64,000 nucleotides of DNA, from the NCBI RefSeq assembly GCF_988242995.1, contig NZ_OZ547043.1; one strand, 5' to 3'. How positions within the stretch are numbered: the stretch's first letter is position 1; each line of letters opens with the position of its first letter. This document shows, one piece after another, positions 1,694 through 53,588 of the stretch. The notes below the pieces were generated by a model. That model did no database searches and had not been told where the DNA came from. It worked only from the letters and a program-made list of their open reading frames with translations. The position numbers and the translations under genes were made by a program.

Positions 1694-2052
1694 TGGCGGG
1701 CATTAATCTCAATAAAAAATTATGGCGTATTCCACAGCAGGGTATGGTACGCGGCGTCTGCGCCGGGATTGCCAACTATTTTGATGTACCAGTAAAACTG
1801 GTGCGTATCCTGGTGGTGCTGTCGATTTTCTTCGGTCTGGCGCTGTTTACCCTGGTTGCTTACATCATTTTGTCATTTGCGCTTGATCCAATGCCGGACA
1901 ACATGGCCTTTGGTGAGCAGCTACCTTCCAGCAGCGAATTGCTGGATGAAGTCGACCGTGAACTGGCGGCAAGTGAAACGCGTTTACGCGAGATGGAACG
2001 TTATGTCACTTCCGATACTTTCACGTTACGTAGCCGTTTCCGTCAACTGTGA
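1693..2052 (+). CDS. pspC: Phage shock protein C
   Basis: 119 aa, translationally coupled to pspB. Confidence 0.93.
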
Positions 2053-36687: not shown

Positions 36688-36858
36688 TTAAAGTTCATGT
36701 GCCATCTGGTCTTTTTCGGCACAAGCTTCACTGCAATATTTTCTCGGTTCGTCTTTTGATAAAATCCCGTGCATGAAGTGAAGCATTCTTTCAATAGCTT
36801 TGCTTTCTTCAACGTCTTTTTTGCAAAGGTGGTAAGCACATTTTATTTTCTTAGTCAT
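36688..36858 (-). CDS. ydaE: Small Cys-rich metal-binding protein YdaE
   Basis: 56 aa ORF read by hand on minus strand ([18 protein letters not shown]...QMAHEL); not in ORF track. Confidence 0.7.
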   Translation of the reverse strand: MTKKIKCAYHLCKKDVEESKAIERMLHFMHGILSKDEPRKYCSEACAEKDQMAHEL

Positions 36859-37079
36859 CACCATGACTCCGCCTTTACAGGTAAACCATCACGACCGAGG
36901 AAGACTTTAATCATGCGGTCAGTAATGCATGTTTTTGTGGTCAGGTTACGAATATATAGTTTTCGCTTTTTAATATTGTTTGCCGAGGCAATATATGTCC
37001 GGCCTTCATGAAGAACATAATCGCCAGGAGTCACACACTGACGTGGTATTTCATCAGTTCCGAAGTGATGTGCAATCAT
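36858..37079 (-). CDS. kilR: FtsZ inhibitor KilR
   Basis: 73 aa from [26 protein letters not shown]. Confidence 0.88.
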
Positions 37080-37520
37080 AATTATCTCCATTTTTACAAA
37101 TGAACTTTGTTGATGCGGTGCCTGGTGCCTCCAGGTGACTGCAACCAGTTAACAATTACAGTCGGCTTTCCCACCCAAACCAATAAGGACTAACATGACT
37201 TTTAACTGTGCCACGTGCGCTTAGCCGCATTCACCGCATCACAAAATTCACTTTAAAAAGGGCGGACATCAGCCGAACTTCAAGAAAAAAACTGATGCCG
37301 CCAGGACTACACACAGCAATGTCGTTATTTACAACCGGAGGCGCACTCCCACCATTTAAATTTAACAGACAAGACCGACTCTTTATGGATATCGGAAATG
37401 CGCCTTCGTGTTGTGCCCGGTTTTATTTCACCACCTCCGGGCTTCGGTGGTCTCGGCTATACCCCTACAGCGAGAGCTTGTGTTAACATTTCAATACCCT
37501 TACAGTTGAGAGTTATTGAT

Positions 37521-38009
37521 ATGTTGGATGTATTTACTCCATTGTTGAAACTTTTTGCTAACGAGCCACTCGAAAGACTTATGTATACGATTATCATTTT
37601 TGGTCTCACTCTCTGGCTGATACCGAAAGAGTTTACTGCCGCATTCAATGCTTATACTGAAATACCTTGGCTCTTTCAGATTATCGTTTTTGCCTTTTCT
37701 TTCGTGGTCGCCATTTCCTTCTCAAGATTGCGAGCACATATTCAAAAGCATTATTCATTACTACCAGAGCAACGAGTATTGCTTCGTTTATCTGAGAAAG
37801 AAATCGCTGTATTTAAAGATTTCCTTAAAACAGGAAATCTTATTATCACTTCTCCTTGCCGTAACCCGGTTATGAAAAAATTAGAACGGAAGGGCATCAT
37901 TCAACATCAGAGTGATAGCGCAAACTGTTCTTATTATCTCGTCACCGAAAAATACTCCCATTTTATGAAGTTATTCTGGAACAGCAGGAGTAGACGTTTT
38001 AATCGTTAG
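37521..38009 (+). CDS. sieB: Superinfection exclusion protein SieB
   Basis: 162 aa from MLDVFTPLLKLFANEPLERLMYTIIIFGLT; membrane segments. Confidence 0.88.
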   Translation: MLDVFTPLLKLFANEPLERLMYTIIIFGLTLWLIPKEFTAAFNAYTEIPWLFQIIVFAFSFVVAISFSRLRAHIQKHYSLLPEQRVLLRLSEKEIAVFKDFLKTGNLIITSPCRNPVMKKLERKGIIQHQSDSANCSYYLVTEKYSHFMKLFWNSRSRRFNR

Positions 38010-38161
38010 CTTACTGTGTGCTTCTCCAACCATCGGCGCGCACCAGTTTCGGTTTTAAATGTTTTGCTTTTGGTATACGTCATGGCAGTGAACGTTCCAT
38101 CCTGGTTGGGGAACACGCCGCACACCAGGGATTCGTTGTTGCCGAGGTCGATTTTTTGCAT
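38006..38161 (-). CDS. ydaF: Rac prophage small protein YdaF
   Basis: 51 aa hand-translated MQKIDLGNNESLVCGVFPNQDGTFTAMTYTKSKTFKTETGARRWLEKHTVS. Confidence 0.75.
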   Translation of the reverse strand: MQKIDLGNNESLVCGVFPNQDGTFTAMTYTKSKTFKTETGARRWLEKHTVS

Positions 38162-38171
38162 TTTGCGAATC

Positions 38172-38306
38172 TCACATCTTGTTGCTACGTATAGCGACTT
38201 CTGCCTGCCAGAGATCCCAGTCGTTGCTGCGTAAAGCCTGCACAGCCTGGTTGTAAGTGATACCGCAACAATCCATCAAATACTGAACTACTTCGTAATG
38301 CACCAT
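38172..38306 (-). CDS. ydaG: Rac prophage small protein YdaG
   Basis: 44 aa hand-translated MVHYEVVQYLMDCCGITYNQAVQALRSNDWDLWQAEVAIRSNKM. Confidence 0.7.
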   Translation of the reverse strand: MVHYEVVQYLMDCCGITYNQAVQALRSNDWDLWQAEVAIRSNKM

Positions 38307-38614
38307 CTTATCTCTCCCCTTAACGCCGGGTGGCGGAACTAACTGCTGCACTGCAAAATTTGAATCCCGCCGTCATGTTCATACGCCTCGGGCTGGCTAC
38401 TTAACCCCTTACCACTGCCTGGTAACTCGAAGTATTGCCCGGCGTTCTGTGGGGCGGGGTGGGTGGTATGCTGGAACTATAGGTAATGCCTAATTGATTG
38501 TCAATAGGCTATGCCTAATGTTTTGAGCGTAACCTAATAGGTGATGGCGACAGCAGAAAGTGATGGGGGGGTTAAATAACGGAATCCAGGAGTTTTCCGT
38601 CAGACCATATAAGT

Positions 38615-39091
38615 TTAAGTTCCAGTTTTTGTGATGTTCTGGCTTTTCCGTTCAGATTCTAGAGCTTTCAGATACTTACCCACTTTCATTTCCATCGCTG
38701 CTATATAGGCGCGAACATCGTGGTCAACCCAATCTGGTTCTGTAGCATTTCCAGATAACAGGAAAGCTACAATCGCTCTTATTTCATCAGAGGCTGCTTG
38801 ATAAAGGTTGTTTATATCTAAAAGTTCACTTTTTGTATCTGAATTGGTGGGGGTTGGTATGGGGTATTCGTTAAGCCCCCAATGCTCTGGACCAACAACA
38901 TCAGAAAAGAAACGCCATAATTCTGGAAGTTTATCTTTACTTATAGAGCCTTTCTTAATCCAGTCATAAATTGATGGTGGTTGGACTTTGAAGTGGCGTG
39001 CGACCTCCGCCTTTGATTTGACGGATCCCGATGCGATTTTTTTGTTAATGGCCTGCTCTATCGCTCGGCCTAAGTCTTTACCACTAAGCAT
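38615..39091 (-). CDS. racR: Prophage repressor RacR (HTH)
   Basis: 158 aa; divergent from ydaS, typical immunity-region layout. Confidence 0.88.
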   Translation of the reverse strand: MLSGKDLGRAIEQAINKKIASGSVKSKAEVARHFKVQPPSIYDWIKKGSISKDKLPELWRFFSDVVGPEHWGLNEYPIPTPTNSDTKSELLDINNLYQAASDEIRAIVAFLLSGNATEPDWVDHDVRAYIAAMEMKVGKYLKALESERKSQNITKTGT

Positions 39092-39214
39092 TGCTTAATA
39101 TTCTCCTATGCGCATTACATTAGGCAATCCCTACCCTTACCGCATTAGGCACAGCCTATTGACAATTGCGTTAGGCGTCGCCTAATATTTCTGTGTGTTT
39201 TTGGAGTTCATTCG

Positions 39215-39511
39215 ATGAAAAAAGAGAACTATTCATTCAAGCAAGCTTGTGCTGTTGTCGGTGGGCAATCAGCAATGGCTAGGCTTTTAGGTGTATCACC
39301 TCCAAGCGTAAATCAATGGATCAAAGGGGTACGTCAATTGCCTGCCGAGAGATGTCCAGCAATTGAACGTGCAACAAGAGGTGAGGTTCTGTGCGAAGAA
39401 CTTCGTCCTGATATTGACTGGTCATATTTACGACGTTCGGCATGTTGTTCGCAGAATATGTCAGTGAAGCAACTAAATGACAGTAACAAATCCTCATTTG
39501 ATCATACCTGA
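39215..39511 (+). CDS. ydaS: Cro-like HTH protein YdaS
   Basis: 98 aa; HTH segment QACAVVGGQSAMARLLGVSPPSVNQW. Confidence 0.88.
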   Translation: MKKENYSFKQACAVVGGQSAMARLLGVSPPSVNQWIKGVRQLPAERCPAIERATRGEVLCEELRPDIDWSYLRRSACCSQNMSVKQLNDSNKSSFDHT

Positions 39512-39533
39512 AACATCAAGAGGCAAATGATTC

Positions 39534-39956
39534 ATGAAAATCAAGCATGAGCACATCGAATCAGTGTTGTTTGCCCTAGCAGCCGAAAAAGGGCAGGCAT
39601 GGGTAGCCAATGCAATTACTGAAGAATATCTGCGCCAGGGGGGCGGCGAATTGCCCCTGGTTCCAGGCAAGGACTGGAACAATCAGCAGAATATCTATCA
39701 CCGTTGGTTGAAAGGTGAAACGAAAACGCAAAGAGAAAAAATTCAGAAGCTGATCCCAGCAATTCTGGCAATCCTTCCGCGCGAGCTGCGTCACCGACTC
39801 TGCATCTTCGATACCCTGGAACGCCGTGCATTACTGGCGGCGCAGGAAGCGTTAAGTACGGCAATTGATGCGCATGATGATGCAGTCCAAGCCGTTTACC
39901 GGAAAGCGCATTTCAGCGGCGGCGGTTCTTCCGACGATTCTGTCATTGTTCATTAA
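39534..39956 (+). CDS. ydaT: Rac prophage protein YdaT (cII-like position)
   Basis: 140 aa directly downstream of ydaS. Confidence 0.85.
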   Translation: MKIKHEHIESVLFALAAEKGQAWVANAITEEYLRQGGGELPLVPGKDWNNQQNIYHRWLKGETKTQREKIQKLIPAILAILPRELRHRLCIFDTLERRALLAAQEALSTAIDAHDDAVQAVYRKAHFSGGGSSDDSVIVH

Positions 39957-39968
39957 GCAAAAGTTTCC

Positions 39969-40826
39969 ATGCTGTTTGTGCTTATTCTAAGCCACCGGGC
40001 AGCATCATACGGGGCAATTATGGCCGCATTACCATACATGCAACTGTACATAGCTGATTACCTGGCTGACACCATGCATTTGTCAGCAGAGGAGCATGGT
40101 GCGTATTTGTTGCTGATGTTCAATTACTGGCAAACAGGAAAGCCAATACCTAAAAACAGGCTGGCAAAAATTGCCCGTCTGACTAACGAGCGATGGGCTG
40201 ATGTTGAACCATCCTTGCAGGAGTTTTTTTGCGATAACGGCGAGGAATGGGTGCATCTTCGGATTGAGGAAGATCTGGCATCAGTCAGGGAAAAATTAAC
40301 CAAAAAATCAGCCGCAGGAAAAGCATCTGTTCAGGCCAGAAGAAGCAGAAAGGAAGCAGATGTTCAAACAAAACAAGAGAGAAATTTAACAGGTGTTCAA
40401 ACAGATGTTGAAGTGGTGTTTGAACATGATGTCAACACAAAGGCAACTAATAAAGATACAGATAAAGATCTAAAAACAGATCCCCCCCTAAATCCCCCCC
40501 GGGGGAATCGAGGTGTCAAAAAGTTTGACCCTCTGGATATTGCTTTGCCGAACTGGATTTCTGTCTCGCTTTGGCGTGAGTGGGTTGAATTTCGCCAGGC
40601 ATTGCGAAAACCGATTCGAACGGAGCAGGGCGCTAACGGGGCGATACGGGAGCTGGAAAAATTCCGCCAGCAGGGTTTTTCACCTGAGCAGGTGATTCGA
40701 CACAGCATCGCCAATGAATACCAGGGCTTGTTCGCGCCGAAAGGTGTTCGACCTGAGACGTTACTCCGACAGGTTAACACCGTCTCGTTACCGGATAGTG
40801 CGATCCCGCCAGGCTTCAGGGGGTAA
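39969..40826 (+). CDS. ydaU: Phage replication initiation protein (O-like) YdaU
   Basis: 285 aa; precedes DnaC-like ydaV. Confidence 0.82.
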   Translation: MLFVLILSHRAASYGAIMAALPYMQLYIADYLADTMHLSAEEHGAYLLLMFNYWQTGKPIPKNRLAKIARLTNERWADVEPSLQEFFCDNGEEWVHLRIEEDLASVREKLTKKSAAGKASVQARRSRKEADVQTKQERNLTGVQTDVEVVFEHDVNTKATNKDTDKDLKTDPPLNPPRGNRGVKKFDPLDIALPNWISVSLWREWVEFRQALRKPIRTEQGANGAIRELEKFRQQGFSPEQVIRHSIANEYQGLFAPKGVRPETLLRQVNTVSLPDSAIPPGFRG

Positions 40827-40832
40827 CTGACC

Positions 40833-41579
40833 ATGAAAAATATTGCGACAGGCGATGTTCTTGAACGTATCCGCAGACTGGCCCCGTCACATGTAACCGC
40901 GCCATTCAAGACGGTAGCGGAGTGGCGCGAGTGGCAACTTTCCGAAGGCCAGAAACGTTGTGAGGAGATCAACCGTCAGAATCGTCAGTTGCGGGTGGAA
41001 AAAATTCTTAATCGCTCTGGCATCCAGCCATTGCACCGCAAATGCTCGTTTTCGAATTACCAGGTGCAGAACGAAGGGCAGCGATACGCGTTGAGTCAGG
41101 CGAAATCCATCGCTGATGAACTGATGACCGGGTGTACAAATTTTGCGTTCAGCGGAAAACCTGGTACCGGAAAAAACCATCTGGCGGCGGCTATCGGGAA
41201 TCGCCTGCTGAAAGATGGCCAGACAGTGATTGTGGTTACCGTGGCTGATGTCATGAGTGCCCTACACGCCAGCTATGACGACGGGCAATCAGGCGAAAAA
41301 TTTTTGCGGGAACTGTGCCAAGTGGATCTGCTGGTTCTTGATGAAATTGGCATTCAGCGCGAGACAAAAAACGAGCAGGTGGTGCTGCACCAGATTGTTG
41401 ATCGCCGGACAGCGTCGATGCGCAGCGTGGGGATGCTGACAAACCTGAATTATGAGGCCATGAAAACATTGCTCGGCGAGAGGATTATGGATCGCATGAC
41501 CATGAACGGCGGGCGATGGGTGAATTTTAACTGGGAGAGCTGGCGTCCGAATGTCGTCCAGCCAGGAATTGCGAAGTAA
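40833..41579 (+). CDS. ydaV: DnaC-like helicase loader (IstB-like ATPase) YdaV
   Basis: 248 aa; Walker [16 protein letters not shown], Walker B LLVLDEIG. Confidence 0.88.
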
Positions 41580-41601
41580 TTTTTACCGGGAGAAAAATTT
41601 A

Positions 41602-42363
41602 ATGGAGACTGTTTTTGACGCACTGAAAGCAATGGGAAAAGCCACATCCATAGAACTTGCTGCGCGACTTGATATCAGCCGTGAAGAAGTGCTGAACGAA
41701 CTATGGGAACTGAAAAAGGCTGGTTTCGTTGATAAAAGCGCGTACACCTGGCGTGTGGCTGATAACAACGTTCAGCAGGAACAGCCAGCGCCGGCAGAAC
41801 TGCCGGAAGAAACTACCACGGCAACAGTCGCGAAAATTTCAGAGAGCGATTTAACTGCGACGATTGAACAACGTGGTCCACTAACTGCGGATGAACTGGC
41901 TACGTTGTTCGGTACCACATCCCGCAAAGTGGCTTCAACGCTGGCAATGGCAATCAGCAAAGCTCGTCTGATTCGCGTTAATCAGAACGGTAAATTTCGT
42001 TACTGCATGCCGGGCGGTAATTTACCAGCAGAGCCGAAAGCTGCATCGGTAGCGGAAACAGATGGTAAAGCCTTTCCTCAGCTAGCCGGTGTTGCGTTAC
42101 CAGTACAGGAAGCTGCAACACAGGAAGATATTAAAACAGAAACTGTGGCGGACATTGTGCAGTCGTTGCCATCGTTTACTGAAACGCAAGCGGATAACCT
42201 GATTTTACCATCGCTGCATATGGCAAACCGTGAACTGCGTCGGGCGAAAAATCATGTCCAGAAGTGGGAGCGAGTCTGCGCCGCGCTGCGGGAGCTGAAC
42301 AAGCACCGGGATATTGTTCGACAGATTTTCGATTCCTCCAGTCGTATTGTGTCGGAAAAGTGA
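41602..42363 (+). CDS. ydaW: Rac prophage protein YdaW (apparently full-length here)
   Basis: about 253 aa from [30 protein letters not shown] (winged-helix-like N-terminus). Confidence 0.7.
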
Positions 42364-42378
42364 TTGCCGGAGGCACCT

Positions 42379-42810
42379 ATGGCAAAAGTATTTACACCAG
42401 AAGAGCGGGAAAAAATTAAAGGGCAGGTTGTTGAACTTGTACGTCTGAGCGGTCGCGAGACGTTACGGGCTCTGGAGGCTAAAACCGGTGCATCAAGGTA
42501 TTACATAAGCACTCTCGCCAGAGAACTGGTCGCCAGTGGTGATGTTTACAATTCAGGCTACGGATTATTCCCGTCTGAGCAGGCTCGTAAGGACTGGCAA
42601 AACGCCCGCAAAAAACTATCCAGGGCAAAGGTGAAAAAAACGGTTGTGGTTGATCCTGACCTTATCTGGTCATTACCAGACGGAGAAATACGCCGCTACG
42701 ACAGGCGCCTGAATATAATCTGTCGCGAGTGCCGGAAAAGCGAAGTTATGCAGCGTGTACTGGCATTTTACCAGAGTAATTTCAGGAGGTTGTCTGGTGA
42801 GCACGATTAA
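42379..42810 (+). CDS. Hypothetical protein with CxxC pair, function unknown
   Basis: 143 aa from MAKVFTPEEREKIKGQVVELV; contains IICRECRK. Confidence 0.55.
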   Translation: MAKVFTPEEREKIKGQVVELVRLSGRETLRALEAKTGASRYYISTLARELVASGDVYNSGYGLFPSEQARKDWQNARKKLSRAKVKKTVVVDPDLIWSLPDGEIRRYDRRLNIICRECRKSEVMQRVLAFYQSNFRRLSGEHD

Positions 42811-42843
42811 CTACTAGGGGGGATAACAATAAAATAAAGCCTC

Positions 42844-43884
42844 CTAGGAGGCTTTGATTATATTAAGCAAATGTTTTCCAATCGTTTCAGACATCTTCGG
42901 AGGGACCGCATTTCCTATTTGACGAGCCCGAGATTGCAAAGAACCAATAAATTTATAATCCAAAGGAAATGTTTGTAGACACGCTGCTTCACGAACCGAT
43001 ATTGCTCGATTTTGTGTTGGATGTCCAAAACGTCCATTTGAATAGCTAATACAACGAGTTGTTAGTCCGCTGGCTGGTTTGTCCCAACTCAAACGTCCAT
43101 ATACGTCTGTATGCCCTTTATGGTTACGATGGCATTCTAAAATCAATTCATCTGGCCAAAATTCTCGACTTCCACCTTCAGGAGTGCATTTTATTCTACG
43201 TAAATTAAGCTCTGATAAGCGTGCAGCTTCATGATCAGGAATACTATTATGCTTTTCTCCTGCTTCTATCTTCGGTAAATTAGCGATCCAGTCCTTTACT
43301 GTTGAATAGGGAGTATTTCCAACCCCATGTGTAGGAGAAGGCAATGCGACATAAAAATCCTTGGATGCAATGAGCACTAATCTTTCTCGCGTCTGTGGTA
43401 CACCGTACCACGCAGCTGGCATTACTTTATAATCTACACTATATCCCTTTGATGAAAGCATTTCTAAAAACATCATGAATGTTCCTTCATTTTTGTTAAA
43501 CTTTTGCATTCCTGGCACGTTTTCAACAAAAATAAAATCAGGCATATAATGCTCTACAAAGCGACTGAATTCCTTTAATAGATCTAATCGTGGATCATCA
43601 TTTTTCTTATTTGAGTTTTGCTTAGAGTACGGTTGACAAGGCGCACATCCTGAAAAAAGAATGTAATCATTACGATGTTTTTTTACTAACTTGTTTATGG
43701 CATTGTTGTCGATTAACCTAATGTCCGAGTTAATAAAAGCAGCCTGCGGGAAATTTGCACGAAATGAACTGGCTGCATCAACGTCGAAATCGAGGCCAAA
43801 AACAATATCCATTCCAGCTTGATGGAAACCTTGGCTGGTTCCACCACAACCGGAAAAGAAGTCAAACACTTTGATTTTTTTCAT
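42844..43884 (-). CDS. DNA (cytosine-5)-methyltransferase
   Basis: 346 aa from MKKIKVFDFFSGCGG; motif I FSGCGG, motif IV GCAPCQPYS, motif VI ENVPGM, motif VIII QTRERLVLIA, motif X GNAVPP; RBS AGAGGGA. Confidence 0.9.
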   Translation of the reverse strand: MKKIKVFDFFSGCGGTSQGFHQAGMDIVFGLDFDVDAASSFRANFPQAAFINSDIRLIDNNAINKLVKKHRNDYILFSGCAPCQPYSKQNSNKKNDDPRLDLLKEFSRFVEHYMPDFIFVENVPGMQKFNKNEGTFMMFLEMLSSKGYSVDYKVMPAAWYGVPQTRERLVLIASKDFYVALPSPTHGVGNTPYSTVKDWIANLPKIEAGEKHNSIPDHEAARLSELNLRRIKCTPEGGSREFWPDELILECHRNHKGHTDVYGRLSWDKPASGLTTRCISYSNGRFGHPTQNRAISVREAACLQTFPLDYKFIGSLQSRARQIGNAVPPKMSETIGKHLLNIIKAS

Positions 43885-43907
43885 TTTTCCCTCTGCATCC
43901 AGAATCA

Positions 43908-45737
43908 CTACCTAATGATACCACGGTCAAGAGCCTGAGTAATTATTTTTCTTATTTTTATAAATTCAGGCAATTCATTTTTAAGTCTTGCGGTCATCAT
44001 TTGTTGGAGGCAAAAAATTTCCTCTGCATTTACTTCTTCTTTATCATACAGGTGTTGCGCTAATAATCTTATTTGATTCTTATACAGTTCTGGATCATTA
44101 GAACTCCAGGTCTGTGAATCAATTATTTCTTTTTCACTTGGCGTAATTGCCTTTTCAATGAGTAATTGTTCGGGAGTATCAAATGGTAAATACTTCACTT
44201 TATTGAATGCATACTCAAGCACTTGCCTTTTGAGTCTATTAGATTCTTGTTCATTTTTTTTGCCATTACTACCACTGGCATTGATAATTAACTCGCAACC
44301 ATAATATTTGCACATTGTATTAACTAAATCAGCATCAGCAATTTCACTAATTCTTACTGGTTTTATTTTTTTGTTTTTATCACCATCAAGTAAAAACAAA
44401 ATATCATTGCGTTCTACCACAGCGTAACTGGGAAGATGCTTGCTTAAAATGGTCTCCGAACCACCTGGTATATAACTTACACTAAATGATAAGCTTAATC
44501 TTTCATCATTTTTAATCGCTTTATCTATAATTGCTTTAGCTAATTTATCTTCTACAATTATTGTTTTCTTGTTAATATCATGCCCTAGCTCTATAAAAGC
44601 TTCATCCGGTGCTATATTTTGAACTATTTTAGCTGTTTCACTCTCTTCATCAAAAACAAATAATTTAATGGCATCTTTGGGAAGAGTGTTCACAATAACA
44701 GGAGAATGGGTTGATATTACCACTTGATGTTTTTTCTGCTCAACAATAGAGTACAGAACATCCATCATCCTTTTTTGTGCACCAGGGTGAAGTGAAACTT
44801 CTGGTTCGTCAAGAAGAATTAATGAATTAGGTTTGGCCGAATAAATATTGAGTATTAGTGAAACTATTGCAAATTCACCACTTCCAGCAAACGCTTCTGT
44901 ATAGTTCAACTTATCAGTTGAAAGTAAAGCGGTTCCTCCTCTGGTTCCAAATAACCGATGCTCAAGAAATTTAATGACTTTATATTTTTTCCCTAATATA
45001 AATGAGACGTGCTCAACTAGTTCTGGCGCCAAGGTTATATTTTTAACAATGGTTTCCGCCCCCCAGAGTCTTAAATTACTTAGCTTTTCATCAAAAGCTT
45101 TCTTTATATATTTAGATTTGCTTCTGATATAGTCTTGCTTTGTAATTAATACACCACTCTTCTTCTTTCTTAATTTAAAATCAGAGTGATACATACATCT
45201 ATCAAATGCACTTATTTCCGATCTGAAATCTAGGAAAACCAATCCCTTCTTGATTTTTTTCCATCTGGTTGCATTACTATTAGCACCCAGATCATCCGAA
45301 ATACTCTCCATGTTATCACCAACAGATGGTCGACTTGTTTCCCAATAATCGATTGTTTTCTTGGTAGCATTGATACGTGCTTGGAGTATTTCAACTAAAC
45401 GGCCATCAGCATTTTTATATCCATATATATATCTAGGTTTAAGAGAACTGCCATCAGCAAGTTTTAGGTCAGGAAACTCATCTGTTTCAGTTGTGAACCA
45501 ATAACGAGTTATATTTTTACCATGTGGGCAACCAAATAGCGCTTTGATAACAGAACTTTTATTAGTTCCATTTTTTCCTACTAAAGCCGTTATAGGGAAC
45601 TGAAAATCGATCCTTGCATTCTGCTCTATATTTTTAAAGTATGGAAAACGGATATGTTGTATGAATGGTTCAAATTCACCGTTTTTTAACGCGCACTGGA
45701 GTGTTCGAATTTTGCTCTTGTATGCGGAAGTGCTCAT
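43908..45737 (-). CDS. ABC-type ATPase fused to C-terminal Toprim-like domain (OLD-family-like nuclease candidate)
   Basis: 609 aa; Walker A LVGKNGTNKSS, Walker B/D-loop SLILLDEPEVSLHP, H-loop VISTHSPVI; C-terminal IIVEDKLAKA glutamate and FLLDGDKN DxD suggest Toprim; 23 bp upstream of MTase on same strand. Confidence 0.7.
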   Translation of the reverse strand: MSTSAYKSKIRTLQCALKNGEFEPFIQHIRFPYFKNIEQNARIDFQFPITALVGKNGTNKSSVIKALFGCPHGKNITRYWFTTETDEFPDLKLADGSSLKPRYIYGYKNADGRLVEILQARINATKKTIDYWETSRPSVGDNMESISDDLGANSNATRWKKIKKGLVFLDFRSEISAFDRCMYHSDFKLRKKKSGVLITKQDYIRSKSKYIKKAFDEKLSNLRLWGAETIVKNITLAPELVEHVSFILGKKYKVIKFLEHRLFGTRGGTALLSTDKLNYTEAFAGSGEFAIVSLILNIYSAKPNSLILLDEPEVSLHPGAQKRMMDVLYSIVEQKKHQVVISTHSPVIVNTLPKDAIKLFVFDEESETAKIVQNIAPDEAFIELGHDINKKTIIVEDKLAKAIIDKAIKNDERLSLSFSVSYIPGGSETILSKHLPSYAVVERNDILFLLDGDKNKKIKPVRISEIADADLVNTMCKYYGCELIINASGSNGKKNEQESNRLKRQVLEYAFNKVKYLPFDTPEQLLIEKAITPSEKEIIDSQTWSSNDPELYKNQIRLLAQHLYDKEEVNAEEIFCLQQMMTARLKNELPEFIKIRKIITQALDRGIIR

Positions 45738-45885
45738 TGTTTACTAAAGTCCATAATAGGCTATTAACAGGTTGAGGATGACATGATAACGATTTTTAAT
45801 GCAGATAAAAGAGGTTTGTTGGTTAGCACACAACAGAAAAAGTGACCTTACCGCTTGAACGAAAGGTAAGGGTAAGTAGGCTGTG

Positions 45886-46038
45886 ATGCAGCAAAAGACG
45901 ATGTTAATCGCCCTGATTGTCATCTGTATTACCGTCGTTGTGATGGCACTGGTAACAAGGAAAGACTTCTGCGAGGTACAAATCCGAACCGGTCAGACGG
46001 AGGTCGCTGTCTTCACAGCTTACGAACCTGAGGAGTGA
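45886..46038 (+). CDS. Hok/Gef-family type I toxin
   Basis: 50 aa MQQKTMLIALIVICITVVVMALVTRKDFCEVQIRTGQTEVAVFTAYEPEE; single TM then conserved C-terminal tail; 3' hairpin GCGAGGGAGAAATCCCTCGC at 46047-46066; below ORF-track size cutoff. Confidence 0.8.
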   Translation: MQQKTMLIALIVICITVVVMALVTRKDFCEVQIRTGQTEVAVFTAYEPEE

Positions 46039-46503
46039 GAGACCAGGCGAGGGAGAAATCCCTCGCCACCTCTGATGAGTCAGGCATCCTCAACGCACCC
46101 GCACTTAACCAACTTTGGCGGGTATATTTTATCTGTGAATATTTTTATAAAAATAATGCCCACGCACAGCATAAAACAAAAAGTATTACAGATAAAAAAG
46201 GAACGTAATGTGCAGATTTGTTGTTTTCCATATTTACTCACCTTAATATGATTAACCCTAATAGGGTTGTTATTTCAGCGGTTTTCAAATGAGATATTAT
46301 GGTGATCTGGCAGATTTGCATAACATTAAAATTTAATTTGTTTAACCGCTTTTAATAATAAGCGTTGTTTGTATCCCAGCAATCTGTTGTTTGGTTTTTA
46401 TTCCATTAAGGTGGGGCTTTACACTGGAGCCAGTTTATTTATACTTCATACGTCAGCCTGAACAACTGGCATCTGCTGCGCTGCGCCATCGAGAGATTAA
46501 GAA

Positions 46504-47103
46504 ATGGCGCATATACAACTGGTCAAACAAACCTCTTCCGGATTACTTCTCCCGGCGACGCCGGAGAGTTGTGATTTTCTGCATCAAATCAAAATAGGCG
46601 AGTGGATACACGCAGACTTTAAGCGTGTGCGTAACTACGCATTCCACAAGCGTTTTTTCAAACTCCTGCAACTGGGATTCGATTACTGGACTCCGGTCGG
46701 TGGGGCGATCACGCCTCGCGAACGAGAACAGCTGTCTGGTTTCGTTGATTACCTGTGCGAATCAGTTGGTCGGGAACACACGCCAGCCCTGAGTGATGCC
46801 GCAGAGCAATATCTGAATACAGTTGCGACACGCAGAACCCGGGATACGGCATTGCTAAAGTCGTTTGAGGCTTTTCGCGAGTGGGTAACCATTCAGGCTG
46901 GATTTTACACCGAACATTTTTATCCGGACGGTAGCCGCGGGCGTCGGGCAAAATCTATCGCTTTTGCGAATATGGACGAAACCGAGTTTCAGCAGGTTTA
47001 TAAATCTGTTCTGAATGTGCTGTGGAACTGGATTCTGTTCCGTAAATTTTCCTCTCCGGAACAAGTCGAAAATGTGGCCGCGCAGCTGCTGGAGTTTGCG
47101 TAA
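46504..47103 (+). CDS. Phage nin-region protein, DUF1367 (YbcN-like)
   Basis: 199 aa; position between replication genes and Q. Confidence 0.6.
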   Translation: MAHIQLVKQTSSGLLLPATPESCDFLHQIKIGEWIHADFKRVRNYAFHKRFFKLLQLGFDYWTPVGGAITPREREQLSGFVDYLCESVGREHTPALSDAAEQYLNTVATRRTRDTALLKSFEAFREWVTIQAGFYTEHFYPDGSRGRRAKSIAFANMDETEFQQVYKSVLNVLWNWILFRKFSSPEQVENVAAQLLEFA

Positions 47104-47393
47104 TGGTGGATTTACGTAAAGCGGCGCGGGGGCAGATGTGCACCGTCAGAATTCCTGGCTACTGCAATCACAATCCCGAAACATCTGTGCTGGCGCATTA
47201 CAGGCTGGCGGGGACGTGCGGAACAGCGACAAAACCACACGATATGCAGGCAGCGATTGCCTGTAGCTCATGCCACGATTTAATCGACGGGCGGGTAAAA
47301 ACCAGCGATTACACCAAAGAAGAATTACGCCTGATGCATGCAGAAGGTGTTTTTCGCACACAAGAAATCTGGAGAAAGGAAGGTTATTTATGA
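47103..47393 (+). CDS. Phage nin-region Cys-rich protein, DUF1364 (YbcO-like)
   Basis: 96 aa with CxxC...CxxC spacing (CTVRIPGYC, CSSCHD). Confidence 0.6.
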   Translation: MVDLRKAARGQMCTVRIPGYCNHNPETSVLAHYRLAGTCGTATKPHDMQAAIACSSCHDLIDGRVKTSDYTKEELRLMHAEGVFRTQEIWRKEGYL

Positions 47394-47932
47394 TTTACCC
47401 AACAAATACAGGCAAAAGCGGGGAACACCTTCGTCTCACCACGCTGGAAAGTGTCTGGATTCAGGGAAAACTGCGCATGTGGGGGCGCTGGTCGTATATT
47501 GGCGGCGGTAAGACGGGAAATATGTTTAACCAGTTGCTGGCATCCAAAAAATTGACGAAAACAGCCGTCAATGAAGCCCTGCGCAGGATGAAAAAAGCGG
47601 GAATAGAGAAACCTGAGCTGGAAGCGTTTTTGCGAGAGATGATCAATGGCAAGCAAAAGACCTGGCTGGCGCATTGTACTGATGCAGAGGCGTTATGTAT
47701 TGATAGAGTCATAAGTGAGGTGCTGGCAGAGCATCCTGGATTGATTAGTGTCCTCCGGCAACGGTATGAAGGACGGGGGATGACTAAGCGCAAAATGGCT
47801 GAATTGCTAAATGATGCACATCCTGAGTGGTGTTTTAGCACATGCGAAAAGCGAATTGCTAATTGGTTGGCTGTTGCTGAGTATGCCCTATATATTCCCA
47901 TGCGAGAATTATTTGCTCAAAAAATAGCTTGA
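47390..47932 (+). CDS. Late-gene antiterminator Q-like protein
   Basis: 180 aa from MIYPTNTGKSGEHLRLTTLE; immediately upstream of lysis region. Confidence 0.6.
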   Translation: MIYPTNTGKSGEHLRLTTLESVWIQGKLRMWGRWSYIGGGKTGNMFNQLLASKKLTKTAVNEALRRMKKAGIEKPELEAFLREMINGKQKTWLAHCTDAEALCIDRVISEVLAEHPGLISVLRQRYEGRGMTKRKMAELLNDAHPEWCFSTCEKRIANWLAVAEYALYIPMRELFAQKIA

Positions 47933-48038
47933 TTTTTTACGCATAAACTGCTTCAATTCCGGTATGCTTCGCAAAGCTGTATCGCGAGGCGAACCAAGCG
48001 CATGAACTTTACCAGAACCCGCCATTGAGCGGGTTTTG

Positions 48039-48751
48039 TTGTGCACAGAAAACCCCCAGCTAGGCTGGGGGTTCCGGAAAGCTTTCAGCTTTGAGCCAGT
48101 TATTAAAACCCCTTTTGATTTGTTAAAACACTTTGCGGTCTGGCAACTGCAAGTGTCAAACAAGAAATCAAAAGGGGGTCCCAATGGGGAACGAAAAGAG
48201 CTTAGCGCACACCCGATGGAACTGTAAATATCACATAGTTTTTGCGCCAAAATACCGAAGACAGGTGTTCTACAGAGAGAAGCGTAGAGCAATAGGCAGT
48301 ATTTTGAGAAAGCTGTGTGAGTGGAAAAGCGTACGGATTCTGGAAGCTGAATGCTGTGCAGATTATATCCATATGCTTGTGGAGATCCCGCCCAAAATGA
48401 GCGTATCCGGCTTTATGGGATATCTGAAAGGGAAAAGCAGTCTGATGCTTTACGAGCAGTTTGGTGATTTGAAATTCAAATACAGGAACAGGGAGTTCTG
48501 GTGCAGAGGGTACTACGTCGATACAGTGGGTAAGAACACGGCGAAGATACAGGATTACATAAAGCACCAGCTTGAAGAGGATAAAATGGGAGAGCAGTTA
48601 TCGATTCCCTATCCGGGCAGCCCGTTTACGGGCCGTAAGTAACGAAGTTGGATGCAAATGTCAGATCGTGTGCGCCTGTTAGGGCGCGGCTGGTAAGAGA
48701 GCCTTATAGGCGCATTTGAAAAACCTCCGGCTATGCCGGAGGATATTTATT
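48039..48751 (+). mobile_element. IS200-type insertion sequence, copy B
   Basis: Near-identical to copy A, same orientation, same terminal hairpins. Confidence 0.9.
48184..48642 (+). CDS. tnpA: IS200/IS605 family Y1 transposase TnpA
   Basis: Identical 152 aa product to copy A. Confidence 0.92.
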   Translation: MGNEKSLAHTRWNCKYHIVFAPKYRRQVFYREKRRAIGSILRKLCEWKSVRILEAECCADYIHMLVEIPPKMSVSGFMGYLKGKSSLMLYEQFGDLKFKYRNREFWCRGYYVDTVGKNTAKIQDYIKHQLEEDKMGEQLSIPYPGSPFTGRK

Positions 48752-48864
48752 GTTTCTGGTACTGGCGAACCTGATGTTTCATTTCTGGAGCGCGATTCCT
48801 GGCGGAATACCTAGAATCGAGACATTCTGGTAAAATTGTTTTCAGTACAGGATGTGGAGGTGAG

Positions 48865-49434
48865 ATGAGAGAACTACCTAAAGATTATTTTTTAGGAGTA
48901 GATGATGAGCTCGTCGATTATCTTGAAAAACAAGGGGAAGAGACGATACGAGAGATTCATCTTTCTAACAAAACCAATGTTGAGAATGGATACAAACTTC
49001 TGAACATTCAGATTGTTGGAATTGGTTCATCTTTTTTATTGCTGACACAGAAAACTAATTTCGATTTTCTCACCGCCGGAATTACCACATTTACATTACT
49101 ATGGACATGGTGCGCCATTTACTTGGTATGTACTGGTTTATCTGTGAAGGTTAGGGGCCTGATCAATGCCCCTCCTGATCATCTATATCATGAAAAATAT
49201 AAGGATATGGAGCCCTCGAGCTTTAAAATATTCGCTGATGCAGGATATTTAGGACCTGATAAGTTATTGCCGCTTATACGAAGGTATCGCCTTGTTGACT
49301 TGAGTGATACAGCAAGAGAGTTACTGTTGGAAAATGAGAAAATCCGCACGAGTCTCGATAAAGCAAGGATGTATACCATCCTTGCTCCGGTAGCGGCGAT
49401 GTTTATCTCGGCTGTTTTTTTATATGTTCAATGA
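48865..49434 (+). CDS. Hypothetical membrane protein (cargo between Q and holin)
   Basis: 189 aa with hydrophobic segments (GIGSSFLLLTQ, TFTLLWTWCAIYLVCTGL, ILAPVAAMFISAVFLYV); AT-rich. Confidence 0.5.
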   Translation: MRELPKDYFLGVDDELVDYLEKQGEETIREIHLSNKTNVENGYKLLNIQIVGIGSSFLLLTQKTNFDFLTAGITTFTLLWTWCAIYLVCTGLSVKVRGLINAPPDHLYHEKYKDMEPSSFKIFADAGYLGPDKLLPLIRRYRLVDLSDTARELLLENEKIRTSLDKARMYTILAPVAAMFISAVFLYVQ

Positions 49435-49659
49435 CTGAGTCGGCAGAATCTCCAACAAAAACACGACGTGTAGCAAAGTCTGTAGTACTTTGTGTTGGAG
49501 TTGGTTTTGGTGCCACGGGGTGCTGAGGTTTATTTTCACCTTGTGGTTTGTTTTTTTCAGACATAAAAATCCTCTTTGTTTGAATTGTTACTTTTGGCGA
49601 TTTAACGATATCAAACACGAGTATATACCGCCAGAAGCTTAATCTGGCACTCCATCTGA

Positions 49660-49685
49660 CCCCGGCATGTCCCGGGGCTTTTTCG
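49660..49685 (+). terminator. Hairpin plus T-run upstream of holin (possible tR'-like terminator)
   Basis: CCCCGG-CATGTC-CCGGGG followed by CTTTTT. Confidence 0.4.
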
Positions 49686-49781
49686 TTGTTAGGCTCCGGA
49701 AACATCCTCGACTTCTTGTTAGCAAGCCTGAGAGCCTGAATCTTACACTTAGCACCATCCGAACTCTCGGAGGTGAGGCTT

Positions 49782-50123
49782 ATGAAAATGCACAATGCCC
49801 CTCATTCCTGGCCTGACTTACTGGAACTCTTACAAAGTTGGTGGCGTGGAGATACGCCGCTGGGTGCAGTGGTTATGTCAATTATTATGGCTGGTTTGCG
49901 CATTGCCTATTTTGGCGGTGGCGGCGGCTGGAAACGAAAAACGCTTGAGATTCTGCTTTGTGGTGCTCTGACGCTGACCTTTGCATCCGCGCTTGAGTAT
50001 GTCGGATGGCCTAAATCACTTTCTGTTGCCATTGGTGGTGGGGTGGGGCTGATTGGTGTTGATGCTATTCGTAGTGCGGCAATGAGGGTCATCGGTAACA
50101 AGTTCGGTGCCCATAAGGAGTAA
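49782..50123 (+). CDS. Class I holin with dual-start motif
   Basis: 113 aa from MKMHNAPHS (Met-Lys-Met like lambda S107/S105); hydrophobic segments; upstream of endolysin. Confidence 0.75.
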   Translation: MKMHNAPHSWPDLLELLQSWWRGDTPLGAVVMSIIMAGLRIAYFGGGGGWKRKTLEILLCGALTLTFASALEYVGWPKSLSVAIGGGVGLIGVDAIRSAAMRVIGNKFGAHKE

Positions 50124-50126
50124 TTA

Positions 50127-50603
50127 ATGCAGACACTTAATTCCCAGCGTAAAGCTTTCCTTGATATGGTGGCATGGTCAGAAGGAACAGATAACGGACG
50201 GCAGAAAACCAGAAATCACGGTTATGATATTATTGTCGGTGGCGAACTGTTCACTGATTACTCCGATCACCCCCGCAAACTTGTCACGCTAAATCCGAAA
50301 CTCAAATCAACAGCCGCTGGACGTTACCAGCTTCTTTCACGCTGGTGGGATGCCTACCGCAAGCAACTTGGCCTGAAAGATTTTTCTCCAGAAAGTCAGG
50401 ATGCTGTAGCGCTGCAGCAGATTAAAGAGCGTGGCGCTTTGCCGATGATTGATCGCGGTGATATCCGTCAGGCTATCGACCGTTGCAGCAATATATGGGC
50501 TTCACTGCCGGGCGCTGGTTATGGTCAGTTCGAGCATAAGGCTGACAGTCTGATTGCAAAATTCAAAGAAGCTGGCGGAACGGTCAGAGAGATTGAGGTA
50601 TGA
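50127..50603 (+). CDS. Lambda R-like endolysin (lytic transglycosylase)
   Basis: 158 aa; near-identical over most of its length to lambda R as recalled ([28 protein letters not shown]). Confidence 0.92.
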
Positions 50604-51064
50604 GCAGAGTAACCGCGATTATCTCCGCTCTGGTTATCTGCATCGTCGTCTGCCTGTCATGGGGTGTTAATCATTACCGTGATAACGCCATCGCCTACAA
50701 AGAACAGCGCGACAAAAATGCCAGAGAACTGAAGCTGGCGAACGCGGCAATTACTGAGATGCAGATGCGTCAGCGTGATGTTGCTGCGCTCGATGCAAAA
50801 TACACGAAGGAGTTAGCTGATGCGAAAGCTGAAAATGATGCTCTGCGTGATGATGTTGCCGCTGGTCGTCGTCGGTTGCACATCAAAGCAGTCTGTCAGT
50901 CAGTGCGTGAAGCCACCACCGCCTCCGGCGTGGATAATGCAGCCTCCCCCCGACTGGCAGACACCGCTGAACGGGATTATTTCACCCTCCGGGAACGACT
51001 GGTAATGATGCAGGCCCAACTTGAAGGTGCTCAGCAATACATAACCGAGCAGTGTTTAAAGTAA
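50600..51064 (+). CDS. Spanin inner-membrane subunit Rz
   Basis: 154 aa [30 protein letters not shown]; overlaps endolysin stop. Confidence 0.9.
50820..51005 (+). CDS. Spanin outer-membrane lipoprotein Rz1 (embedded in Rz, +1 frame)
   Basis: 61 aa; lipobox VVGC and proline-rich [15 protein letters not shown]. Confidence 0.88.
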
Positions 51065-51201
51065 AATCTTAACTACAATATGATTCATTTTGATGATTGT
51101 TTCATAAGGAACAGTGAAGTAAGATCTAAGAGGAGTTAAATTTTATACAGTATAATCATAATATTGCAGCAAGGTGGTTATAATTGAAAGAATATTTAGA
51201 T

Positions 51202-52659
51202 ATGAATACATCTCATGTAAGAGTTGTTACTCATATGTGTGGGTTCCTGGTTTGGCTCTATAGTCTTTCAATGTTGCCACCAATGGTTGTAGCATTGTTT
51301 TATAAAGAAAAAAGCCTGTTTGTTTTCTTTATAACTTTCGTTATATTTTTTTGCATTGGTGGCGGAGCGTGGTATACAACTAAGAAATCTGGCATTCAAT
51401 TACGTACCCGTGATGGGTTTATTATAATTGTAATGTTTTGGATTTTGTTTTCTGTTATTAGTGCATTCCCTTTATGGATTGACTCAGAACTTAATTTAAC
51501 GTTCATTGATGCTCTGTTTGAAGGGGTTTCTGGAATAACAACAACAGGAGCAACTGTAATTGATGATGTTAGTTCATTACCTCGGGCATATTTGTACTAT
51601 CGGTCACAGTTAAATTTTATAGGTGGTTTAGGAGTTATTGTTCTGGCGGTTGCTGTATTGCCATTATTGGGTATTGGTGGTGCAAAGCTTTATCAGTCAG
51701 AAATGCCGGGGCCATTTAAGGATGACAAACTCACTCCCCGCCTGGCCGATACGTCACGGACACTGTGGATAACTTATTCTTTATTAGGTATTGCTTGTAT
51801 TGTCTGTTATAGACTTGCAGGAATGCCTTTGTTTGATGCTATTTGTCACGGGATTTCCACAGTTTCGCTTGGTGGTTTCTCAACTCATAGCGAGAGTATC
51901 GGATATTTTAATAACTATTTGGTTGAGCTGGTGGCTGGTTCTTTTTCCCTGCTATCGGCTTTCAACTTCACTCTTTGGTATATTGTTATTAGCAGGAAAA
52001 CGATAAAACCTTTAATCAGAGATATTGAACTTCGTTTCTTTCTGTTAATAGCCTTAGGTGTGATCATTGTTACCTCTTTCCAGGTCTGGCATATAGGTAT
52101 GTATGACTTGCATGGAAGTTTTATTCATTCGTTTTTTCTTGCCAGCTCCATGCTCACTGATAATGGTTTAGCTACGCAGGATTATGCAAGTTGGCCCACG
52201 CACACGATAGTGTTTTTGCTGTTGTCAAGTTTCTTTGGGGGATGTATAGGTTCAACTTGTGGTGGAATTAAGTCACTTCGATTTCTTATACTTTTCAAAC
52301 AAAGCAAACACGAGATAAATCAGCTTTCTCATCCCAGAGCGTTGTTGAGTGTAAATGTAGGAGGGAAGATAGTTACAGATCGTGTAATGAGGTCTGTATG
52401 GAGTTTCTTTTTTCTTTATACTCTCTTCACGGTGTTTTTTATACTGGTGTTAAATGGTATGGGATATGATTTTCTTACATCATTTGCAACAGTGGCTGCA
52501 TGCATTAATAATATGGGATTAGGTTTTGGGGCTACTGCATCGTCATTCGGAGTGCTTAATGACATTGCAAAATGTTTAATGTGCATAGCTATGATTCTTG
52601 GTCGCCTTGAAATTTATCCTGTTATTATATTGTTTTCAGGTTTTTTTTGGCGCTCCTAA
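51202..52659 (+). CDS. trkG: Potassium uptake protein TrkG (TrkH paralogue, prophage-borne)
   Basis: 485 aa from MNTSHVRVVTHMCGFLVWLYS; AT-rich codon usage. Confidence 0.92.
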   Translation: MNTSHVRVVTHMCGFLVWLYSLSMLPPMVVALFYKEKSLFVFFITFVIFFCIGGGAWYTTKKSGIQLRTRDGFIIIVMFWILFSVISAFPLWIDSELNLTFIDALFEGVSGITTTGATVIDDVSSLPRAYLYYRSQLNFIGGLGVIVLAVAVLPLLGIGGAKLYQSEMPGPFKDDKLTPRLADTSRTLWITYSLLGIACIVCYRLAGMPLFDAICHGISTVSLGGFSTHSESIGYFNNYLVELVAGSFSLLSAFNFTLWYIVISRKTIKPLIRDIELRFFLLIALGVIIVTSFQVWHIGMYDLHGSFIHSFFLASSMLTDNGLATQDYASWPTHTIVFLLLSSFFGGCIGSTCGGIKSLRFLILFKQSKHEINQLSHPRALLSVNVGGKIVTDRVMRSVWSFFFLYTLFTVFFILVLNGMGYDFLTSFATVAACINNMGLGFGATASSFGVLNDIAKCLMCIAMILGRLEIYPVIILFSGFFWRS

Positions 52660-52796
52660 TATATGGCTGATTTATAATTGTGAGTTTAATATTATGTTGA
52701 CTCACTCATTGATCCAATACCTAACTTTACCAGCAACACCTCCGTCCCCAGTAGCACTGGCTGCTGGGGTGCGTTTTATTCATAAAGCAAGGCTGT

Positions 52797-53588
52797 ATGA
52801 GCGAGAAATTAAAGATAGTCTATCGCCCATTACAAGAATTGTCACCGTATGCGCACAACGCCAGGACGCACAGTACTGAGCAGGTGGCACAACTGGTAGA
52901 AAGTATTAAGCAATTCGGCTGGACTAATCCGGTGCTGATTGACGAAAAGGGCGAAATTATTGCGGGTCACGGTCGTGTTATGGCGGCTGAAATGCTCAAA
53001 ATGGATTCTGTTCCGGTCATTGTTCTGTCTGGCCTGACGGATGAGCAGAAAAAGGCGTACCGCCTGGCAGATAATCGCCTGCCGATGAATGCTGGCTGGG
53101 ATGAAGATCTGTTGCGGATGGAGCTGTCGGACCTAATCAATGCTGATTTTGATGTCTCCCTGACAGGCTTCATCCCGACAGAAATTGATGAACTGTTGAC
53201 GGATGTTTTGCCCGGTACAGGAAATGAGGAGGAGCCGTATACGACGAAAATTGATACGCCTGTTTATGAGCCGTCGGGCGGTAAACCGGATATCAGTGAA
53301 CTGTACGACGATACGAAAACTCAGGAGCTGATCAGCCGGATACGTTCGGCGTCCCTTGAGCCTGATATTGAGAAATTCCTCCTGTGTGCGGCAGAACGTC
53401 ACACGGTGTTTAATTTCAGCAGAATTGCGGACTATTACGCTCACGCCCCCTCTGAAATTCAGTGTTTTTTCGAGGAGTCGGCGCTGGTGATCATTGATTA
53501 TCAGCAGGCTATTGAAAATGGATTTGTCCGGATGACGCAGCGCATGGTGGAGATCATGCATGGTGGTGAGGAGGAGGAATATGCGTGA
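52797..53588 (+). CDS. ParB-like nuclease domain protein (full-length counterpart of K-12 ynaK)
   Basis: 263 aa; ParB/Srx-type motif IIAGHGRVMAA. Confidence 0.65.
   Translation: MSEKLKIVYRPLQELSPYAHNARTHSTEQVAQLVESIKQFGWTNPVLIDEKGEIIAGHGRVMAAEMLKMDSVPVIVLSGLTDEQKKAYRLADNRLPMNAGWDEDLLRMELSDLINADFDVSLTGFIPTEIDELLTDVLPGTGNEEEPYTTKIDTPVYEPSGGKPDISELYDDTKTQELISRIRSASLEPDIEKFLLCAAERHTVFNFSRIADYYAHAPSEIQCFFEESALVIIDYQQAIENGFVRMTQRMVEIMHGGEEEEYA

Follow-up and report, generated by a model that had tools for sequence, protein, structure and literature searches.

A predicted lambda-family S holin of a deeply divergent branch in the mosaic lysis cassette of a Rac prophage that retains its late region

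The 64,000-nucleotide stretch of contig NZ_OZ547043.1 (assembly GCF_988242995.1) that was analyzed here, referred to as the window, contains an open reading frame (ORF) at positions 49782-50123 that very probably encodes the S holin of a Rac prophage with its late region still in place. The product would be a class I holin of the lambda S family and would belong to a deeply divergent branch of that family, the SfV/Rac branch. The ORF is intact: 113 codons run from an ATG at 49782 to a TAA at 50121-50123, and the encoded protein begins MKMHNAPHSW. An upstream GTG at 49773, given as the start in a mechanical list of ORFs, was rejected, because it falls within a Shine-Dalgarno sequence (GGAGGUG, 49769-49775) and an RNA hairpin described below; the ATG at 49782 is therefore the first plausible start of S.

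Family membership was established from profile searches and a pairwise alignment. A single pairwise BLASTP comparison with lambda S (NP_040644) aligns 111 residues, 29 of which are identical (26%, E = 7e-7), and blastn finds no similarity to lambda DNA across S. This agrees with the sequence-only reading of the locus, which had called the holin divergent. That reading also held that the protein shares only its two closely spaced start codons and a general class I layout with lambda S, which is too strong, and the idea that it forms a separate family did not survive a family search. The NCBIfam equivalog model TIGR01594 ("holin_lambda") scores the protein at 139.7 bits, compared to 127.3 bits for lambda S itself and a cut-off of 55. 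Pfam family PF05106 matches over the full length (E = 8e-28, 97.2 bits against a cut-off of 23.8), and PHROG 126 ("holin/anti-holin", E = 5e-39) also includes lambda S and the S protein of SfV. Residues R40, Y43, C60, G89, G92 and G109 are invariant across a 35-sequence alignment that includes lambda S, and PF05106 is carried by all 120 of the listed homologue cluster representatives. A tblastn search of the holin against 50,697 phage records (E <= 1e-5) matched 27 records and did not reach lambda, so homology to lambda S is shown by the pairwise BLASTP comparison and the family hidden Markov models. On the strength of these searches, the protein clearly belongs to the lambda S family, though as a divergent member. 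The ratio of nonsynonymous to synonymous substitution rates (dN/dS) against five relatives is 0.08-0.17, which indicates that the coding sequence is under purifying selection.

The allele is also widespread. Holins of induced E. coli prophages match the protein at 99% identity, and the published S proteins of SfV, SfII and SfIV, all phages of Shigella, match it at 86-88%. Among 5426 complete E. coli genomes, 963 carry DNA with 80% or higher identity to this S allele, and in the sampled table of these matches every entry is annotated as "phage holin, lambda family" or "phage holin family protein". Lambda-type S is present in 238 phage records, P22 and Sf6 among them. The Rac S holin is already known in kind, and standard annotation names the gene correctly.

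The assignment to Rac is based on colinearity with E. coli K-12 and on flanking genes. Positions 36850-42051 of the window correspond to K-12 1418000-1423201 at 98.98% identity, and 50620-53050 correspond to K-12 1423200-1425630 at 99.88%; recE and intR lie upstream and trkG follows Rz. These matches identify the locus as E. coli prophage Rac. The rzpR/rzoR-trkG region of K-12 is the same prophage and the same locus, but it has no Rac holin: K-12 is without window positions 42052-50619, a segment of 8.57 kb with a 2-nt overlap at the junction. This deletion begins inside the ydaW region, ends after the first 20 nt of Rz and removed Q, orf189, S and R, which explains the rzpR pseudogene and the hybrid ydaW ORF of K-12. 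Undeleted Rac prophages such as this one reveal exactly which segment K-12 lost.

The gene begins ATG AAA ATG (49782-49790), with the second ATG at 49788, and the Met-Lys-Met dual start noted in the sequence-only reading is therefore present in an intact ORF. An M-[K/R]-M start is kept in 90 of the 120 homologue representatives, down to ~55% identity and across Escherichia, Salmonella, Klebsiella, Pantoea, Erwinia, Yersinia and Serratia; the K-to-R substitutions preserve the positive charge. The motif is that of the lambda S family, and by analogy with lambda both starts would be used. Immediately upstream is a stem-loop of the type found at the lambda sdi region (49753-49775, Table 1). Its 3' arm contains GGAGGUG, the Shine-Dalgarno sequence of Met1, 6 nt before that codon; at a spacing of 9 nt, Met3 is preceded by a GAGG that remains unpaired (49775-49778). 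The 51-nt hairpin context folds at -15.6 kcal/mol (z = -2.1). Among 20 distinct 35-nt segments from upstream of holin genes, lambda included, the mean folding energy is -10.9 kcal/mol with differing stem sequences, compared to -4.1 +/- 2.8 kcal/mol for the 35 nt upstream of 53 long ORFs of the window; 18 of the 20 holin segments and 7.5% of the controls reach -9 kcal/mol or lower. Equivalent hairpins are predicted for lambda (the known sdi region), SW-37, Fels-1, OS31, YeP1 and 683R1, as well as for Klebsiella, Pantoea, Erwinia, Shimwellia and Mixta prophages. The layout of lambda-style translational control, with two starts and a hairpin that occludes the Shine-Dalgarno sequence, persists at 26% protein identity and with no DNA similarity.

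A prediction of membrane topology likewise agrees with the class I layout that had been read from the sequence. Hydropathy analysis locates three hydrophobic 19-mers at residues 27-45, 57-75 and 82-100. Under the positive-inside rule, KRK at 51-53 and the basic C-terminus would be cytoplasmic, and the acidic N-terminus (D12, E15 and D24) fits an outside location; the predicted arrangement is that of a class I holin, with three helices, N-out and C-in. An AlphaFold2 model built from a 35-sequence alignment places helices at 10-22, 26-44, 50-73 and 78-108, and owing to its low confidence (pTM of 0.38) it was used for secondary structure alone. The N-terminal tail of ~24 residues carries a near-invariant SWWRGDTP motif, and the first transmembrane domain is shifted toward the C-terminus relative to lambda S.

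Downstream of S, the lysis partners are nearly those of lambda, as the sequence-only reading had proposed: R, Rz and Rz1 are 94%, 93% and 98% identical to their lambda counterparts (Table 1). R matches PHROG 90 ("endolysin", E = 1.3e-63), retains the glutamate of the AWSEG motif, and has a polar N-terminus with neither a signal sequence nor a signal-arrest-release (SAR) sequence. Rz1 lies in the +1 frame within Rz and has a VVGC lipobox, an arrangement that reads as the two-component spanin of lambda, with Rz1 embedded in Rz. The gene order Q, orf189, S, R, Rz/Rz1 places S directly upstream of a cytoplasmic endolysin in a Q-dependent late operon. Because R has no hydrophobic N-terminus, a holin that forms large holes is needed for its release.

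The mechanism that follows from the lambda model would run as described here. Late transcription would depend on Q, and the mRNA would be translated from two starts. Initiation at Met1 would give a 113-residue antiholin with an extra N-terminal lysine, and initiation at Met3 a 111-residue holin. By sequestering the Met1 Shine-Dalgarno sequence, the hairpin would set the ratio of the two products. The holin would then build up in the inner membrane until, at a programmed moment, it opened large holes, through which the cytoplasmic R transglycosylase would escape, after which Rz and Rz1 would disrupt the outer membrane. The hydrophobic helices, the low dN/dS, the hairpin and the conserved M-[K/R]-M support a holin/antiholin mechanism of this kind, which by analogy would make Rac S a timed, energy-poison-triggerable former of large, non-specific holes. 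The lambda mechanism on which this reasoning draws has been reviewed (PMC9636201).

Several observations weigh against this interpretation of S. Literature searches returned no experimental work on this S allele or on any Rac holin, and the confidence of the AlphaFold2 model is low (pLDDT of 60). RNAalifold, run on a MAFFT alignment of 17 upstream regions, found no consensus structure, a result attributed to stems that are out of register because loop lengths and bulges differ; support for the hairpin comes from folding each sequence individually against shuffles and control ORF starts, which is weaker than a covariation test. The predicted periplasmic tail, with its three acidic residues, is longer than that of lambda S, which bears on the antiholin action of a single lysine. 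An IS200 copy located between Q and S might lower expression. Finally, the holins of SfV, SfII, SfIV and mEp460 lack the first ATG, with GAC GAA ATG or CTA CAA ATG in its place, and have a single start, which means that close relatives can do without the dual start; the absence of the motif from SfV, SfII and SfIV has been described, and how lysis is timed in these phages is stated there as not known (PMC3851460).

Table 1 Features of the lysis region and its surroundings. Positions are those of the window unless a phage locus is named.
Feature	Position	Strand	Description
Q-like late antiterminator (DUF1133 family)	47390-47932	+	PF06576, E = 1.7e-108; weak match to PF06530 Phage_antitermQ
Terminator-like hairpin	48017-48042	+	ACCCGC-CATTGA-GCGGGT followed by TTTGTTG; ~85 nt after the Q stop
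IS200 copy, ~703 bp	48043-48745	+	Between the Q-proximal terminator and orf189; same orientation as S
orf189, conserved phage membrane protein (predicted, 189 residues)	48865-49434	+	PHROG 11870 (unknown function), E = 6e-108
Terminator-like hairpin	49660-49685	+	CCCCGG-CATGTC-CCGGGG followed by CTTTTTCG; ~100 nt upstream of S; from a terminator scan
RNA hairpin predicted to sequester the Shine-Dalgarno sequence	49753-49775	+	CACC-A-UCCGA / loop ACUC / UCGGA-GGUG; lambda sdi-like
S holin gene, long form	49782-50123	+	113 residues from Met1; predicted antiholin
S holin gene, short form	49788-50123	+	111 residues from Met3; predicted active holin
R endolysin, lambda transglycosylase type	50127-50603	+	149/158 residues (94%) identical to lambda R
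Lambda DNA homology block	50145-51054	.	91.4% identity to lambda 45511-46420; left edge is the S/R mosaic junction
Rz, inner-membrane spanin subunit	50600-51064	+	141/152 residues (93%) identical to lambda Rz; PF03245, E = 5.6e-53
Rz1, outer-membrane lipoprotein spanin subunit	50820-51005	+	+1 frame within Rz; PF06085, E = 2e-19; 56/57 aligned residues (98%) identical to lambda Rz1
trkG, TrkH-family potassium transporter	51202-52659		Directly after Rz, where lambda has bor; GC 32-42%
Site of the lost first ATG in extracted phage loci	SfV 1798-1806; SfII 1801-1809; mEp460_4F5 1798-1806		Upstream hairpin still predicted

The history of the cassette can be read in more than one way. In the sequence-only reading, a foreign holin was exchanged into an otherwise lambda-like lysis cassette, which here would mean that lambda S was replaced by recombination at the S/R boundary. 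Similarity to lambda DNA does begin abruptly, at 50145, no more than 2 bases from the position that matches the lambda S stop (45509), and comparisons with HK022, HK140, mEpX1, mEp043 and Kapi1 give that left breakpoint again (query position 586). Further recurrent breakpoints are found at the start of Rz and inside Rz, and a second junction lies near 50500, where the SfV-type phages diverge. Taken with the 93-98% identity of R, Rz and Rz1 to lambda, the sharp S/R junction bears out the modular part of the claim. What is not supported is the choice of the holin as the part that moved.

When identity is followed in 60-nt bins, the S zone (49782-50140) is 85-98% identical to 683R1 throughout and 78-97% identical to SfV, SfII and mEp460_4F5 except in the first bin (45-63%); against lambda it stays at 38-43% per bin, which is the random level. 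The 5' two-thirds of R are 77-97% similar to all compared phages per bin and are equally close to SfV/683R1 (77-95%) and lambda (78-93%). From ~50500 to 50980, covering the 3' end of R, Rz and Rz1, identity to lambda rises to 93-100%, while SfV, SfII and 683R1 reach only 22-75%. The R protein follows the same pattern: it opens with the six residues MQTLNS, an SfV-type sequence where lambda has MVEINN, and its C-terminus is lambda type. The S-R junction itself (AAGGAGTAATTnATG) and the R N-terminus MQ(T/A/V)LNS are common to SfV-type phages and are not those of lambda. In Rac a gap of 3 nt separates S from R; in lambda the two genes overlap by 17 nt.

The partners of this S allele in other phages argue in the same direction. 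It is paired with a lambda-type R in SfV, SfII, mEp460_4F5 and 683R1, and a lambda-type R (87-99% identical) occurs in 75 of the 76 IMG/VR loci that have enough downstream DNA. A lambda-like Rz/Rz1 (97-100%) is found in only 6 of the best 80 loci (88-100% identical) taken from at least 572 confirmed IMG/VR relatives; no deduplication was applied to these loci, among which the same prophages are probably represented many times, and the counts of 75/76 and 6 are accordingly descriptive rather than frequencies. In 12 loci Rz is 49-66% identical, and in all others the spanin is unrelated. Farther out in the S branch, the partner endolysins are of other types, among them Glyco_hydro_19 and PF00959. 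Since the allele usually occurs with a lambda-type R and lambda-like Rz/Rz1 is its rare partner, the exchange is not assignable to the holin. Exchange of a module comprising the 3' end of R with Rz and Rz1 is at least as parsimonious, and the near-lambda identity is restricted to that block and is shared with those 6 loci only. We consider a holin swap unlikely, though it retains more weight than a passing objection. On these comparisons, the cassette is an ordinary lambdoid mosaic in which S and the 5' part of R are SfV-like and the 3' end of R with Rz/Rz1 is lambda-like; if anything, the latter block appears to be the unusual partner in this S lineage. Module boundaries in the lysis cassette thus fall at gene boundaries and also inside R. 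Lysis cassettes that mix holin, endolysin and spanin families have been described (PMC8136144; PMC3851460).

It might also be that S is intact but silent in this strain, through a cryptic prophage and a polar IS200 between Q and S. The element lies directly after the Q-proximal terminator and is co-oriented with the late operon (Table 1). It was recognized from a Y1_Tnp transposase at 48133-48642 (E = 7e-37) and the Rfam STnc490 element, the IS200 5' RNA, at 48051-48174 (144.6 bits). The segment is missing from the otherwise 99.9%-identical ERP001 locus, and an IS200 at this site is found in none of the 5426 complete E. coli genomes of the collection, whose best matches are split in two and span 89% of the query. 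Rac is moreover cryptic in K-12. Against silence stand the intact ORFs of Q, S, R, Rz and Rz1 and the established ability of Q-modified RNA polymerase to read through terminators in lambdoid phages (PMC3851460). The proposal also concerns expression in one strain and leaves the identity of the gene as it is; it is regarded as quite improbable.

Q matches PHROG 753 ("anti-termination protein Q-like", E = 3.5e-79); its 180-residue start was taken from the Prokaryotic Genome Annotation Pipeline (PGAP) annotation of the 97%-identical ERP001 copy. The hairpin at 48017-48042 is a candidate equivalent of lambda tR', and in SfV a rho-independent terminator is annotated at the matching site after Q. 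Another terminator is annotated in SfV shortly before S, and the corresponding hairpin at 49660-49685 would be read through by Q-modified RNA polymerase. A sigma-70 scan returned 5 promoter-like sites, compared to 6.8 expected in shuffled sequence, and did not locate the late promoter.

A further alternative holds that only one start is used and that Met-Lys-Met is inherited baggage with no holin/antiholin regulation. SfV, SfII, SfIV and mEp460 are viable with their single start, and because the tail of Rac S is longer and more acidic than that of lambda S, a lone lysine may count for less. In lambda S107, the extra lysine blocks translocation of the N-terminal tail. The retention of M-[K/R]-M in three quarters of the representatives (90 of 120) and in several genera, with K/R changes that conserve charge, argues against baggage. 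So do the two purine-rich ribosome-binding motifs, which are properly spaced for the two ATGs, the first being inside the conserved hairpin. Use of a single start is held to be somewhat less credible than silencing, and regulation by two starts is preferred.

The N-terminal extension nevertheless invites a more speculative proposal. Together, the predicted helix at 10-22 and the SWWRGDTP motif might form, for example, a distinct periplasmic timing or antiholin determinant, and such a determinant could account for the ability of SfV-type members to dispense with the dual start. That the acidic extension makes this branch act unlike lambda S, or that undeleted Rac prophages are still lysis-competent, is given only a slim chance. 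The occurrence of dual-start (E. coli Rac type) and single-start (SfV type) forms in one allelic branch provides a natural pair with which to address the contribution of the antiholin.

A class II pinholin of the phage 21 S/EssD kind, working with an exported endolysin, has nothing further in its favor than that many E. coli lambdoid prophages use the pinholin system (PMC8136144), and was rejected as next to impossible, since BLASTP against K-12 EssD gives E = 1.7, S has three hydrophobic segments rather than two, and R, at 94% identity to lambda R, has no N-terminal hydrophobic or SAR segment. The phage 21 S/DLP12 EssD protein is likewise a lambdoid prophage holin, and dual starts are known in both families (PMC9636201), but EssD has 71 residues and two helices, is partnered by a SAR endolysin and has no sequence similarity to Rac S. 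Close homology to lambda S or phage 21 S, which would have told against the sequence-only reading, is not seen for the protein at 49782-50123.

Set beside known systems, Rac S as a lambda-family holin resembles the lambda S105 holin/S107 antiholin pair in its family matches (TIGR01594, PF05106 and PHROG 126), its MKM start, its Shine-Dalgarno-sequestering hairpin, its three hydrophobic helices, its conserved Arg, Tyr and Cys, and the lambda-type R directly downstream. It differs in its low sequence identity, in the absence of detectable DNA similarity, in the longer acidic tail with SWWRGDTP and in the displaced first transmembrane domain. The S genes of SfV, SfII, SfIV (for example, NP_599081) and mEp460_4F5 belong to the same allelic branch, at 86-88% identity, and share its S-R junction and upstream hairpin, and the R of these phages is lambda type and 91-97% identical. 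Unlike Rac S, the SfV-type S has no first ATG, and SfV, SfII and 683R1 have an unrelated spanin pair and a different R 3' end. The prophage holins of Salmonella Fels-1/ST64B, Yersinia YeP1, Serratia OS31 and Klebsiella, Pantoea and Erwinia belong to the same subfamily (49-79% identical) and have an MKM or MRM start with an upstream hairpin; the Fels-1 record carries the remark "Dual start motif". In contrast to Rac S, these Fels-1-type relatives are paired with Glyco_hydro_19, with T4-type lysozyme (PF00959) and with other endolysins. On the whole, Rac S appears to be a routine lambda-family holin in a typical mosaic lambdoid lysis cassette, and for that reason it matters little.

Two genes adjoining the lysis genes differ from them in base composition. 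The GC content of orf189 is ~39%, compared to ~50% in the lysis genes, and no Pfam, NCBIfam or PADLOC match was found for its product. Its position and low GC content suggest that orf189 is a moron, an accessory gene gained by the prophage, which may act in superinfection exclusion or host interaction. The similarly low GC content of trkG, relative to the ~50% of the lysis genes, is consistent with a horizontally acquired moron.

Other features were observed near these genes. Between orf189 and S, and partly overlapping the 3' end of orf189, is a minus-strand ORF (49403-49618) that corresponds to a 71-residue hypothetical protein annotated by PGAP in ERP001 (WP_251121148.1). In Erwinia, Shimwellia and Mixta prophages, HicA/HicB toxin-antitoxin pairs are encoded on the opposite strand ~150-800 nt upstream of the holin, a position that in these three unrelated hosts corresponds to that of orf189 in Rac. 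Downstream of trkG, similarity to K-12 ends at 53050, which indicates a second K-12 deletion at that point. The protein with a ParB/Srx N-terminal domain encoded there (52797-53588) is the full-length form of K-12 ynaK, and it matches the PADLOC model MTase_II (E = 1.5e-38) and PHROG 620 (E = 1e-90).

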